A DNA stretch of 64,000 bases from Lingula anatina. Taxonomy: Eukaryota; Animalia; Brachiopoda. Both the position numbers and the translations under genes were made by a program. Under the pieces are notes generated by a model. That model worked only from the letters and a program-made list of their open reading frames with translations, was not told where the DNA came from and searched no databases. The stretch covers positions 6,518,954 through 6,582,953 of the forward strand of contig CM120644.1 of assembly GCA_051362555.1 (NCBI GenBank), written 5' to 3'. This document shows positions 35,774 to 64,000 of the stretch, piece after piece; the stretch's first letter is position 1; each line of letters begins with the position of its first letter.

Positions 35774-36368
35774 TTAATAATGGCGCTTGCCGTAGCCTTG
35801 ACTTTTAGGTGGATATCCATATTGGCTGCCCTGTCCGTAACCGCTGCTTTGGTATCCTCCGTATCCGCCGCTGCTGCCGTATCCACTGCTTTGGTATCCT
35901 CCGTATCCGCCGCTGCTGCCGTATTGGTTCTTTCCGTATTGGTCGCTGCTGCCGTATTGGTTCTTTCCGTATTGGTTGCTGTTGCCGTATTGGTTCTTTC
36001 CGTATTGGTTGCTGCTGCCGTATTGGTTCTTTCCGTATTGGTTGCTGCTTCCGTATTGGTTCTTTCCGTATCCACTGCTGCTGCCGTATTGGTTCTTTCC
36101 GTATCCACTGCTGCTGCCGTATTGGTTACCGTATTGGTTGTCACGGCAGCCGTAAGCGTCACACTGGTGGTTGTTGCATGGTTTGTAGCCGCCGCTGGAA
36201 GCGTCGCAGAAGCACCAGACCTGACCATCGTACTGCTTCTGGCAGCCGTAGGCGTAGGGGTTCACGTTCACTTCGCCGGACCAGCAGCCACGGGTCACGC
36301 CTGGTTGGAAGAATGAAAAAAAGGTGTGTTAGTTGGGATGCAAAGAATATGCTGTGACTTTGTAGCTT

Positions 36369-36414
<46 letters not shown>

Positions 36415-37908
36415 CTGGCCGAAAATCCCTGGCCTACGACGACATAAGAACCACCAAGGAGGTTGGGGTAGACATAACGAACGTTGTTGGAATAAGCTGC
36501 CCTCACAACTGACCAAGACAATAGTTAACCTAAAGATTTTGTAGTAGTTAAAGATATCACAAATTTGGCCGAAATTGCATTACCCGTTTAGATGGCTTGG
36601 ATTGACCGTGCTGAGTATAATTTTGTAGTAGCTGAAGAAAACGATACTTTCGCTGAAATTACAATACCTAACAGACTTATATACTAGTAGAATAAAGCAA
36701 CTAAGTTTGCTTTGGGACAAAAGTACTTTAGACTCCGACGGACCAATGAACCGACAGGCTTAAAAAATTTGGAACGGGCGGCTGTAAGCTGTTAGGCGAA
36801 AAGGCAGTAAGGCACACAAACAGACAGGCAGGCAGACAGACAGACAAAACACAATTTGATTACTCACGTTTGCTGTACTCATCGAATCTGGTAAAGCATC
36901 TTCCGCTCTTGCAGGCCCAGACGTCCACGCCGGAACCTGGGGCGTCAGGGTTGGCGCACTGGGCATAGCCAGACTGGCCGCCATAACCGTAACCGCTCTG
37001 CTTCAGCGAATACTCACAGTTGTAACAGTCTAAGAGGAAAAAAGAATACAAAAGGAAGTTTAGTCGTGTGATCGTTTTTGTTTGTTTGTTTGTGGATTGG
37101 TTGGTTAGTTGGTTGGTTGGTTTCCATTTTTGTGTGAAAAATTTCGCAGATTGGACTTCTACTTTTCTTTCCTAAATAGTGTCTGGTTCTGTCGTGCAAA
37201 GGATATTAAGAGTAAAATTCAAAACAATTCAGGTTAACTTAGCTGTCACCGTTTTAGACCTTAGCTTAGACCAAAGCTTAGACCTTGTTGCACTATCGAA
37301 AACATTGAACAAATCCTAACATCTTTGCCCATGGAGGATTTTTACAAGAAATAACCCAAATGGAAGCACTGGTAGATATCCCCTTATATTTCAATCAAAG
37401 CAAATTGTGAAAATTTTATGGAACAAAGAAATGCCACAATCATATGACACAATAAACAAAGTATGGAGATTAAATATTTATAAGAAAAAAAACATTAAAC
37501 AGGTTAAATATAAGGTACACAGTGGGCGTCATCGTTGTAAAACAACTTTGTAGCATTTGGTATGCAATGACAAAGGTCCCGTGAAACATTTCTTCGAGCC
37601 TTGAGCCGAGTACAGAAAATGTTGCAGTTGAAAATCAACAGATGAGAGGAAACTCCACATGCTGTTTTGAGCGCTGTTGCTGAGACGCGAGTAATGATAT
37701 GAACGCAACGCAAGCTCTTAGATGAGGTACGGCTAGCAGGCTCACTTCAGAATCAACCACTTATACCCAATGAACGAAAACCGCCGCAATTAAATTAATC
37801 TACATTATTGAGAGTTAGTAGATATACGGATTACTTACTTGATCCATAGGGATCGGAGCTGGCACTAATGTACCCAACTGCAAGAATCAATGTCACTGCA
37901 AAAATCAT
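35774..37908 (-). CDS. Secreted three-finger (Ly6/uPAR, Quiver-like) protein with a Gly/Tyr/Ser/Gln/Asn-rich tail, gene A, 252 aa; exons 37839-37908, 36868-37029, 35774-36300
   Basis: Signal peptide MIFAVTLILAVGYISA; CYNC...C...C...C|..RGC...GC...CFC...CN (10 Cys); both introns phase 1 with GT-AG; tail of GKNQYGSS repeats; TATA-like element near 38011. Confidence 0.88.
35835..36140 (-). repeat. Coding minisatellite: about 6-7 x 33 bp (GKNQYGSS[N/S/D][Q/G]Y), then 2 x 42 bp (GSSGGYGGYQSSGY)
   Basis: Repeated CCGTATTGGTTCTTTCCGTA... units on the plus strand. Confidence 0.92.
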
Positions 37909-38010
37909 GATGATTCTGTCTCAGACCTTGGAACTAGAGTTCGCAAAAAATCAGCCTGTCTCTTCTCCTGACGGTGACGATTGTGCGCTCTTGCTGGCTT
38001 CACGCAAGCA

Positions 38011-38018
38011 TATATATA
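38011..38018 (-). promoter_or_regulatory. Putative TATA box of gene A
   Basis: TATATATA about 100 bp upstream of the ATG at 37908 on the minus strand. Confidence 0.55.
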
Positions 38019-60946: not shown

Positions 60947-61096
60947 CAGGCCCGTAGTCAGGGGGATTCGGGGGATTTTGCTCGGAAAAGGTCCACTTTG
61001 GGTAAAATTTTATCTAGGTACATGAAGTTTTTATGGAAAAAGGTCCACTTTTTCAGAAAAAGAACCCCCCTTTTGAAATTGCTGGCTACGGACCTG
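60947..61096. mobile_element. hAT-type MITE, 150 bp, 5-bp TSD GGATT
   Basis: CAGGCCCGTAGTCAG ... CTGGCTACGGACCTG, with GGATT on both flanks. Confidence 0.85.
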
Positions 61097-62177
61097 GGAT
61101 TGAAAGTCACGTGTTTAAATCCCAGATGACGCAAGTCAGTTTACCACAAAAACGAGCTGGCCACGGAATCGGGTAGTCGCGGAAACGAGGACGGGCTCTC
61201 CTGGGTCCCAGCAAATAACCTCTTGCATAAAAACCGGTAGAGTTTAGAATAAGTCACCGCTTTGACAAAAATTAATGCTGGCCATTATCATTAAGTCTGC
61301 ATCGTCAATAATAGTCCCTTTCTATTCACTTAAAATTCCTTAAAATCATGATTAGACGGGGATGGCCATTGATCTCTATCTTTTACTACACGATGTACCA
61401 CACATCAAACTAGAAATGTGTCAACAGCTATTTAAACCGGCATGACACCATGCATGTCAAACTGGCCTTGCATCAAAAAGTTCTATCTTGGGATTATCAT
61501 GGATTTTTTTTCTCAAAAAACCGCATCGTATCAATTGTTTTACCTTATCTTACTTTTGTGTGCCCCCATCCCTTAGGCACCTGCTTATCAAGACTGTTCA
61601 TACCGTCATGCAGTAGCCGGGGCAACTTTACAGTCGACATTTAAAAGAGCAAAGACTTCTCAGTACTAAAACCGTCAAGGTGTGAACGGCTTTGGCTCTC
61701 AACGTGCTCTATAACACCACAGGTGAAGACAGTAATCTCAGTGTAAAACAAAACGAAAATAAAGCACGTGAAGTCATTTGACCGGGAACGTTCCGGGTGG
61801 GCTTATAAAAAAAGCGAAAAAACTTGAACGAGTGATTAAAAAATATAACGATAAGACCGAATTTTGAAGATTGTCTGCAATGTTTCAATCTGCCATGTGC
61901 GAGCGAGTTCCCTACGGTACTGAGCCTGGTTTCTCCCTTCCCTAGATTTTGACCTTCTGACGACACAATATTCCTGACCAGTGTGAATTTAATGGGGGGA
62001 GAACTCTCAGTTGTTGTTATAATCAAAGTCCCTCTTGACTTTGATTATAATTATGGACAGAATTTTTACTCCTGACGAAACGTACAAGTATATATATTTA
62101 CAGAATCAATATGAACTGTTATCGCGAGAGGGTGGCAGTGTATTATTTGACAAACGTGTACACCACATCTCTAGGCA

Positions 62178-62361
62178 CAAACCAGTAGCCGGGGGGGGGG
62201 GGGGGGGGGGGGGGGGTCGGGGGGTTCGAAAGAACCGCCCCTTTCGCTAGGAAAAAGTCCACTTTGGGAAAATTTTGATCTAGATACATGGCGTTTTATG
62301 GGAAAAGGTCCACTTTTTCAGAAAAAGAACCCCCCTTTTGAAATTGCTGGCTACGGGCCTG
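62178..62361. mobile_element. Second copy of the 60947-61096 MITE
   Basis: Shares GGAAAAGGTCCACTTTT..CAGAAAAAGAACCCCCCTTTTGAAATTGCTGGCTACGGGCCTG; degenerate left TIR; flanks AGGCA/AGGTA. Confidence 0.8.
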
Positions 62362-62933
62362 AGGTATGAATATTAGTATGCGAAGGTGGTTTTGCCGAGC
62401 TCCACAGCTGGCCACTACTACCCCCAGCCACCGTCTACGACCCTGATCAGCTCTCTTACACACTCCCGAGATCATTTCACATTAATCACCACCGAACTGT
62501 CCTTGCAACTCGTACACTGGCACTCCATTAGGAACAAACACATAGTGTTTTTCTTATCGCTGAGTAAAACAAGAAACATAAATCAAATTATAAAAATACA
62601 AAAGACAATTATTAAAGACAAAGGCGTATCTGTGAGAGTGGTTTAATACGACTGACCGTGACAGCCTGGCGCAAACCAATACCAAGGGACACGTTTAGAC
62701 CACTGCTTTGAAATTCGCTAGATCGAAAAGCCAGTTTTGACAGCGATGTTATCGACGTTAAAAGGGAATAAAACAGCAATCAAGCAGGCATTCCAGTGTT
62801 ACACGTGGGGGGAGGAAGGGAGGAGGTCCAGTCCCAATACAGTCTAAACTGGCCCAAAACAAAACAGGGGTATCATATATGGACCCTTTCGGTGGAGTGA
62901 GGACACAGTCTTGATATCTCCGCCAAAGTGATC

Positions 62934-64000
62934 ATGTACTTTTCACTGCTGCTGCTGAACCTCTTCGTCGCTGTTGCCCCCAATAATGTGGAATACAGTA
63001 AGTAGAAAAAGTCGACTCTGTCATAAGTTTGGTTTGTCCTAGAGGTCATTACACATAATTTTGTTCACTTTCTAACGATTTTAATGCTAGCGTGTCCGTT
63101 GCGAGGGAGTTAATACGTTTTATCTGATTTTTTATAGTTAATTATCTTGCATTTTTAAATATTTCTTTTTCGTAATGTGTCCTGAACTTTTCAATATATT
63201 CTAGACTTTTAATGGATTATCATTATTAGTGATAGTATTATGATATTAATATTAAGCATGTTCACTAAGTACGTATTGCTCACTATAGAAAAAGTGTCCC
63301 TTTTAACCGTACATCACTGAAAAGATGTAATTCTAAAATATTGCATGTTTAGGGACACATTTACAATGGGTTTAGAATCAACCCCTTTTAATGATAAAGC
63401 ATATTTGTTTTATTGACTATTTAAGAAGTTTTTGAGTGCGTGTTTTCCAGGCTGCTATTACTGCGAGTTCAACGTTGAAGACGTGAATGCTGGCTTTGGC
63501 GCATGCGCAAATCCTGATGAAGACTCGGGTGTGGCTGTCTCGTACTGCGACTCGGGCGCCTGCTACAGTAGATGGAATCCTAAGTCTGGGTGTAAGATAT
63601 TTGTCTATTTTTTTTCATTATTAATCTGATCAACCGTTGAACTTTCCTTCCATTTTGTCTTTTCTTTCTACTATTCTTTGTAATGATTTATTCTCTTTGA
63701 GTTTATAATGATTTTTTCCTTCATGTATGTAGCATACATTGAACATGTGCATATTACATAATATCTCTCTCTTTTTTCTTTCTTTCTTCTTTCTATTCAT
63801 TTTTTTCACCCTCTTAATTTTTCTTTTCATCATGTTCTTTCTTATTTCTTGTTCAGTTGTGATCCGTGGTTGCCATGCCGGCGAGACCAATGTTGCTGTC
63901 ACCACCAGGGGCTGCACAAGGAACGCTAATGGCGAGGTGGTTTGCTCATGCGCAGCTAGTGAGGTCCCATGTAACCATGACGACATGGCGCCATATTATT
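62934..64000 (+). CDS. Secreted three-finger protein, gene C (paralogue of B), 3'-truncated by the window edge; exons 62934-62997, 63451-63591, 63857->64000
   Basis: Hydrophobic leader MYFSLLLLNLFVAVA; SCYYCEFN...GFGACANP...C...CYSRWNPKSG|FVIRGCHAGETNV...[30 protein letters not shown]; exon 2 has the same length (141 nt) and phases as in gene B. Confidence 0.88.

Follow-up and report, generated by a model that had tools for sequence, protein, structure and literature searches.

Three paralogous genes share one exon structure

The window, a 64,000-nt stretch of the Lingula anatina genome, contains three paralogous three-exon genes, here called A, B and C, each at the position noted for it in a preliminary description. 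Gene A is encoded on the minus strand (exons 37839-37908, 36868-37029 and 35774-36300; 252 aa). Genes B (56391-56451, 57020-57160 and 58643-58944; 167 aa) and C (62934-62997, 63451-63591 and 63857 to the window end at 64000; 116 aa so far) are encoded on the plus strand. All six introns are GT..AG and all six are in phase 1, as the preliminary description had proposed, and the RefSeq model of gene A agrees, with identical splicing and 249 of 252 residues identical. No fourth copy was found in the window by tblastn with the three gene models.

The first exon of each gene encodes a signal-peptide-like N-terminus, hydrophobic in gene A and identical there to that of RefSeq XP_013408102.1; the N-terminal 9-mers of the three proteins score 2.7-3.1 by hydropathy scan only. 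A TATA-like hexamer lies ~110 nt upstream of the gene A ATG, and a TATA box 74 nt upstream of that of gene B. Exon 2 carries cysteines 1-5, and its first loop holds a short Gly/Tyr insert in gene A; exon 3 carries cysteines 6-10 through to a CN dipeptide. In genes A and B, exon 3 then continues into a tail and a stop codon, preceded in gene A by two extra cysteines. Exons 2 and 3 of gene C are 65% and 79% identical to those of gene B. The window ends 8 residues past the CN of gene C, before any tail, and the visible end reads MAPYY as in gene B, a shared lead-in already noticed in the preliminary description.

We looked for transcripts of gene B exon 3 in four of nine RNA runs that carry the same species label and come from unspecified tissues. 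Among ~44.5 million records, eight reads covered the exon and none fell in 13 intron bins; two of the four runs contributed no reads, and in two runs the depth over the boundary between CN and tail was 4 and 2. Coverage stops in the same bin as an AATAAA polyadenylation signal (59021..59026, plus strand). The reads match at 90-95%, one of them at 95-99%, so that a diverged population or a close paralogue may be their source. At a threshold of three reads, no splice joint or loose end was listed for this exon in any of the four runs.

A ten-cysteine domain with a probable three-finger fold

The ten cysteines proposed earlier for all three genes hold exactly for B and C, which have identical spacing (2,13,13,4,14,13,9,1,6), but not for A, which has 12, two of them past the CN. 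From the opening CxxC to the closing CN, the ten span 86 residues in B and C and 96 in A. The broad features of the three-finger (LU) superfamily are present in all three genes, namely about ten cysteines running from CxxC to CN in a domain of 80-100 residues, an exon 1 with a signal-peptide-like start and a domain spread over exons 2 and 3. The exon-2 and exon-3 cysteine patterns, drawn up after the genes had been seen, each matched the window three times, compared with means of 0.02 and 0.00 in shuffled sequence (n=100). The mammalian LxCxxC start and CC-x4-CN end were not found; none of A, B and C has a Leu at the second position ahead of the first cysteine, and the domain closes with CxC-x6-CN (B and C) or CxC-x9-CN (A). 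Exons 2 and 3 show no mutual repeat relationship. Between B and C, dN is 0.24 and dS 2.33 over 93 codons, and the pair is under purifying, not diversifying, selection overall.

The ESM Atlas placed eight of ten structural neighbours in QVR, Ly-6_related or UPAR_LY6 clusters, at TM 0.43-0.63, which is under the Atlas naming bar; the best were Quiver/Ly-6-related (TM 0.58-0.63 by query, residues 22-130). The Pfam LU families (UPAR_LY6, QVR, Ly-6_related, Toxin_TOLIP and Activin_recp) gave no match to full-length A or to the A domain at E up to 10 with default filters, nor to the individual exons of the three genes, the form in which B and C were scanned. DUF753 came up for the gene A domain at E 6.7, which is not significant. 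AlphaFold2 reached pLDDT 38 for the gene A domain with a shallow five-row alignment, and 37 for the 219-aa record by itself. These low-pLDDT models gave no Foldseek match at E<=0.001 and a best VIA-align Z of 2.2, and are uninformative either way; sequence searches of the PDB returned no relevant match. The three-finger assignment of the preliminary description stands as a lead from the Atlas neighbours, which neither Pfam nor our own low-confidence models confirmed, and the ten-cysteine domain likely adopts a three-finger fold of the Ly6/Quiver type. In LU domains the disulfides pair 1-5, 2-3, 4-6, 7-8 and 9-10 (PMC4839075).

Hydrophilic Gly/Tyr-rich tails without a GPI signal

The gene A tail (35777..36172, minus strand) is 132 aa long, with G 25%, Y 19%, S 17%, Q 14% and N 10%, and is built of N/Q/S-rich 11-residue repeats encoded by a 33-nt array at 35912-36127. 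That of gene B (58762..58941, plus strand) has 60 aa, with G 32% and Y 28%, in 6-residue repeats containing Pro/Arg and encoded by an 18-nt array at 58834-58907. The YG-repeat tail ascribed earlier to both genes is therefore correct as to composition and hydrophilicity, but the two are different kinds of repeat. Across four RefSeq records the gene A tail varies from 99 to 132 aa. Although the repeat units differ, both complete tails end in G-Y-G-K-[K/R]-x-Y.

Neither A nor B has a GPI signal, as had been claimed: both C-termini are hydrophilic (the most hydrophobic 12-mer of the last 30 residues averages -1.17 in A and -0.92 in B on the Kyte-Doolittle scale), and the tail is in frame in the same exon as cysteines 6-10. 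Exon 3 of either gene lacks a GT[AG]AG donor, and RNA reads span the tail and 3' UTR of gene B. The tails are basic (pI ~9.2), with a small net charge (10 K+R against 3 D+E in the 132 aa of A) and with 0 (A) and 1 (B) aliphatic residues. By our own count, glycine reaches 29% (A) and 28% (B) in an 80-residue window, above the SilkSlider-class bar of 25%.

Relatives and comparable architectures

Gene A corresponds to RefSeq XP_013408102.1/103.1, named 'stress protein DDR48-like', and XP_013407557.1/558.1, named 'RNA-binding protein FUS'; these four records are gene A plus a second copy or haplotype. Both names probably arose by automatic matching to the low-complexity tail, and Pfam found no RNA-binding domain in the gene A protein. 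A representative protein search returned eight proteins, one of which was gene A; the four examined among the other seven were three WD40 repeat proteins plus an unrelated protein with repeats. Genes B and C had no match in the public protein collections searched, and the sequence searches found no homologue outside Lingula, which bears out the suggested lineage restriction. The Atlas whole-protein search showed no head-plus-tail cluster among clusters of at least 50 members. A literature search likewise turned up no family with such an architecture, in agreement with the earlier impression that the fusion had not been described. Glycine-rich tails on folded domains are as such common. Lingula has 101 three-finger proteins according to PMC13719153, and gene A may be among those listed there.

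Quiver/Sleepless-type proteins and nematode Ly-6-related proteins (PF17064, PF06579) likewise have one cysteine-rich domain that follows a signal peptide. Their typical members end with a GPI signal, whereas A and B end with a hydrophilic repeat tail, and the Pfam scan gave no match to these families. SLURP1 and PATE, feature-level look-alikes at 0.75 in the Atlas, share three exons, an exon-1 signal peptide, ten cysteines, a terminal CN and the absence of GPI (PMC4839075). Unlike them, A and B lack the mammalian CC-x4-CN and carry a Gly/Tyr tail of 60-132 residues past the domain.

Insect Retroactive, a three-finger protein encoded in three exons and containing ten cysteines, takes part in the assembly of chitin cuticle, and its aromatic residues are predicted to contact chitin (PMC3561106). 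It is likened to A, B and C by description, not by sequence, in its three exons and ten cysteines, and offers a precedent for such a fold in the making of a chitinous cuticle. In contrast to A and B, its C-terminus is hydrophobic; in Tribolium the protein is found mostly inside the cell, and it works through the trafficking of Knickkopf. The same paper speaks against its affecting chitin directly in that insect. The silk-like structural proteins treated in the available part of PMC4944945 (nacrein, Cara7LA, SM lectins and nematogalectins) recruit a folded domain together with a Gly-rich low-complexity region, and their predictor requires at least 25% glycine in 80 residues after the signal peptide, together with a SignalP signal peptide and the absence of a TMHMM transmembrane helix. 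Genes A and B share a signal-peptide-like start by hydropathy, this glycine content and the pairing of folded domain with low-complexity region, and differ in that their folded domain is likely of three-finger type, which that part of the source does not list.

Discussion

The chances seem to us about even that these genes encode a secreted matrix protein whose head is disulfide-bonded and whose Gly/Tyr tail can be cross-linked through tyrosine. The preliminary description had suggested a structural or adhesive role, with a tail that might be cross-linked, as in DOPA or dityrosine materials, or might phase-separate. An ancestral GPI-type Ly6 gene would have lost its hydrophobic end, and tandem repeats would have expanded in exon 3. 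The protein would then be secreted, and its disulfide-bonded head would bind a scaffold, for which chitin or another matrix protein is the most plausible candidate. The evenly spaced tyrosines could promote self-association and subsequent joining by peroxidase or tyrosinase chemistry; the peroxidasin of Lingula is mantle-specific, and its chaetae and periostracum are chitinous. Its deployment would be confined to a particular tissue or stage, with chaetae, periostracum, pedicle cuticle, larval shell and egg coat as the candidates, and would not extend to the mineralised bulk of the adult shell.

Evidence against an abundant role in the adult shell comes from two shell proteomes and from the scarcity of gene B reads. 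The supplement of the 2026 RefSeq-based proteome contains neither the gene A accessions tested (three of the four) nor any of six gene A motifs, with a control accession present. In the 2015 proteome, none of the 63 rows compared out of 65 (14 novel and 49 of 51 homologous) resembles A or B in length and glycine content. The databases searched in such studies may lack B and C, and cross-linked proteins are easily overlooked.

The alternative that survives best, though we regard it as unlikely, is that these are secreted defence proteins, with a cysteine head for recognising the surfaces of microbes or fungi and a basic Gly/Tyr tail that damages or traps microbes. Two-part antimicrobial proteins are known in the crustins and penaeidins; the paralogues described here are clustered and small, with signal-peptide-like starts and basic tails, and low resting expression would suit an inducible gene. 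However, the tails have little net charge and almost no aliphatic residues, and the purifying selection on B and C overall also tells against defence. In its favour, PMC13719153 raises toxin or antimicrobial roles of secreted invertebrate three-finger proteins as a hypothesis.

Slightly less probable is that the proteins are precursors to be cut, with a head that would be a soluble three-finger ligand or would modulate a receptor, and a tail that would be trimmed or released as tyrosine-amide peptides. Vertebrate secreted Ly6 proteins act on receptors, Gly-dibasic is an amidation-type motif, and processing would fit both the C-terminal motif common to the two tails and the seven Y-G-K sites of A, mostly 11 residues apart. 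Yet each tail has one dibasic site only, and single lysines are poor convertase sites. Proline after a basic site counts against cleavage, and it follows two of the three Y-G-R sites of B and one further G-R. Four motifs were also sought without success in the neuropeptide supplement of PMC8557429, a file with 423 mentions of 'anatina'.

A little less probable again is a component of glue or mucus at the pedicle tip or in larval attachment, its tyrosines converted to DOPA for surface binding and not for a load-bearing matrix. Mussel foot proteins are rich in Tyr and Lys, tyrosine adjoins Gly-Lys seven times in A and twice in B, and the pedicle is the organ by which Lingula attaches; this account overlaps that of a matrix protein, and the sequence cannot separate the two. 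That the cysteine domain is not three-finger, or that ordinary Ly6 genes have gained the tails by neutral run-on of repeats, is very improbable: the missing Pfam LU match, the CxC-x6/9-CN ending and the variable tail length among RefSeq records would fit, but ten cysteines, a terminal CN and three exons match the family description, the Atlas neighbours concur, and two repeat units with no relation to each other have arrived at Gly/Tyr and at one C-terminal motif, which neutral expansion does not predict.

Returning to the secreted matrix protein, a bolder form of that reading, to which we give rather less than an even chance, is that lingulids turned the three-finger fold into a biomaterial block, in which heads would bind chitin or matrix and condensate-forming, length-variable tyrosine tails would be cross-linked into chaetae, periostracum, pedicle cuticle or larval shell. 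The proteins could belong to the long-unidentified 'keratin' of Lingula setae, a term taken from the title of a cited work. At minimum, two misleading RefSeq names are corrected and genes B and C are brought to notice. The small head and tunable tyrosine tail can be expressed directly and tested. If the structural role is true, it would supply named candidates, listed in neither shell proteome, for the protein of brachiopod chaetae or periostracum, and it would extend to the building of materials a fold that is familiar in signalling and toxicity, from receptor ectodomains, receptor modulators and toxins.

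Gene structure and conservation

Three paralogous genes, each with a signal-peptide exon (assigned by hydropathy) followed by two cysteine exons, were modelled from sequence: gene A at 35774-37908 (minus strand, 252 residues), gene B at 56391-58944 (plus strand, 167 residues) and gene C from 62934 to the window edge at 64000, which cuts it (plus strand, 116 residues so far). The six introns all have GT..AG borders and lie in phase 1, and their positions match between genes, which bears out the three-gene, phase-1 three-exon architecture of the preliminary description. The ten-cysteine pattern proposed there holds for B and C, which share the spacing 2,13,13,4,14,13,9,1,6 and a terminal CN; all ten recur in gene A, where the first and last loops are longer and two extra cysteines lie beyond CN. 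Gene B shares 65% (exon 2) and 79% (exon 3) identity with C; with A the values are 48% and 43%. The exon-2 and exon-3 cysteine patterns, both composed only after the genes had been seen, each occur three times in the window versus 0.02 and 0.00 in 100 shuffles. Across 93 codons, B and C differ with dN 0.24 and dS 2.33, the latter close to saturation, and third-position GC is 58-65% in the genes versus 38.5% GC for the whole window.

Searching 1.84 billion representatives with a profile built from the second exons of all three genes returned a single strong match (E 7e-20), gene A. The cluster containing gene A comprises four RefSeq records from two scaffolds, labelled 'stress protein DDR48-like' (XP_013408102.1/103.1) or 'RNA-binding protein FUS' (XP_013407557.1/558.1). 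The 252-residue record differs from our model at only 3 positions, all within the tail; RefSeq therefore splices A identically. The records (219, 230, 241 and 252 residues) have a common head and step by the 11-residue tail repeat unit, suggesting allelic or very recent copy variation in tail length. Because the RefSeq 'isoforms' of A (tail at 35777-36172, minus strand) differ by exactly one 33-nt unit, they are likely repeat-number alleles and not splice forms.

At 50102-50210 (minus strand), a stretch with a phase-1 donor is another candidate for a signal-peptide exon; tblastn found no matching cysteine exon downstream, and it may therefore be chance or a different gene.

RNA reads on gene B

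Four of nine RNA runs were mapped to the last exon of gene B and its flanks. Two gave 3 and 5 reads on this exon; the other two gave zero and constitute no test, as the organism's presence in them is not demonstrated. In the read-giving runs the 13 intron bins held no reads, and in the better run coverage was gapless from the acceptor bin through the AATAAA bin, with a depth of 4 at the CN-to-tail boundary. Expression of B is very low in these samples, whose tissue is unspecified. Most reads are 90-95% alike to the window sequence; the ten differences listed fall in nine codons (four silent, five conservative) and hit no cysteine. The source of the reads may be a population that has diverged or a closely related paralogue. 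RNA-seq had been proposed as a check on splicing: the last exon is covered and the intron bins are empty, but no exon junction is listed among these reads, and the splicing of B and C therefore rests on sequence and analogy with A. Within intron 2 of gene B (57161-58642) one stretch looked tRNA-like by eye; ARAGORN called no tRNA anywhere in the window.

Tails without an anchor

The tails share an exon and reading frame with CN and comprise 132 residues in A (G 25%, Y 19%, S 17%, Q 14%) and 60 in B (G 32%, Y 28%), with a mean tyrosine spacing of 5.2 and 3.3 residues. Despite unlike repeat units, they have a common terminus, G-Y-G-K-[K/R]-x-Y. The suggestion that a GPI signal is lacking was upheld for A and B, whose final 30 residues are hydrophilic and whose tail exons contain no GT[AG]AG donor.

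Fold of the cysteine domain

The LU domain (three-finger, Ly6/uPAR) is defined by ten cysteines, a three-exon gene, an exon-1 signal peptide, and LxCxxC and CC-x4-CN motifs (PMC4839075, in part). Genes A, B and C match its cysteine count, exon layout and terminal CN, but not the exact mammalian motifs. For residues 22-131 of A, eight of ten ESM Atlas structural rows were clusters of QVR, Ly-6_related or UPAR_LY6 (Pfam LU families) and two were unnamed, at TM 0.43-0.63, every one below the tool's family-naming bar. A feature search with A gave top scores of 0.81, and its ten best family-bearing matches share a family or clan, as do those of a third of shuffled proteins by the tool's own statement. 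The Atlas model of A has pTM 0.45 and pLDDT 0.60 over the whole protein, and two AlphaFold2 models were of too low quality to bear on fold. The three-finger layout put forward earlier agrees with the gene structure and most Atlas rows, whereas full-length A has no Pfam LU match. We regard the cysteine head as very probably a three-finger fold; A, B and C are not assigned to any named Pfam family.

Range and novelty

Searched against 5.8 billion clusters at 132-422 residues, the A head matched A only; exon 3 of B yielded zero candidates of 98-2000 residues; and the second-exon profile had no credible match beyond Lingula. B and C were absent from the results. On these protein searches, which would miss distant relatives, the family looks lineage-restricted, in agreement with the preliminary description.

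In Lingula, 101 three-finger proteins were counted by a 2026 survey that covered 387 invertebrate genomes, and none of the new domain fusions listed in the portion available carries a Gly/Tyr tail; detection there is by Pfam domains, so low-complexity tails would go unremarked (PMC13719153). A starfish survey reported 2 likely secreted among 48 proteins, and 'glycine' is absent from its main text (PMC11595613, in part). A 2011 paper stated that the Ly6 module was never observed alongside other extracellular motifs (PMC3058042, in part). Our full-text search, including the accessions of A, found no description of this architecture in the literature covered, which excludes most subscription journals. 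A probable three-finger head with a Gly/Tyr tail is a real, apparently undescribed variant; the head, the tail and the design principle are each already familiar.

Other features of the window

A multi-exon asparagine synthetase gene (29212-34132, plus strand; GATase and Asn_synthase Pfam matches) lies tail to tail with gene A, their ends ~1.6 kb apart. The window is animal DNA; an exon of this synthetase gene matches a protein of Lingula anatina at 99% identity (next match 76%). At 32531-32639, the final part of one exon is tandemly duplicated (55 nt). Two near-identical, single-ORF rhodopsin-family GPCR genes (596-1639 and 8676-9704, minus strand; 7tm_1, E 4e-36 and 2e-38) are tandem duplicates. 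Two long ORFs occupy 14051-16000 (minus strand); a SOCS box (E 1e-6) is present in the downstream ORF, and the upstream ORF has no Pfam match. A hAT transposase remnant lies between A and B (48874-49431, plus strand; Dimer_Tnp_hAT, E 2.5e-8). By eye, ORF 25491-25967 (plus strand) resembles a LINE C-terminus and ORF 3008-3355 (minus strand) a DNA-transposon fragment; neither had a Pfam match at E 0.01.

Possible function

Genes A and B exceed the glycine bar of a silk-like protein predictor, and Gly-rich regions are often joined to folded domains in animal materials (PMC4944945, in part). Insect Retroactive, a three-finger protein, is linked to chitin cuticle, its aromatic residues being predicted to bind chitin, although work in Tribolium favours an indirect one (PMC3561106, in part). 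The chaetae and periostracum of Lingula are chitinous according to part of the PMC4595640 supplement, which also cites a work whose title names chitin and keratin in Lingula setae. Peroxidasin is mantle-specific in Lingula. A search of the supplement to the 2026 shell proteome (PMC13425148) recovered a control accession but not gene A, and the 2015 shell proteome tables have no fitting row among 63/65 rows; a matrix of restricted tissue or stage is therefore favoured over bulk shell.

That A and B are defence proteins seems unlikely. A processed precursor, ranked below that, would account for the Gly-dibasic terminus common to both tails, but a search of a Lingula-rich neuropeptide supplement found none of four motifs (PMC8557429). 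A glue is the least probable of these three. Over these rivals we favour A and B as matrix proteins of a restricted tissue or stage, to which we would give about an even chance.
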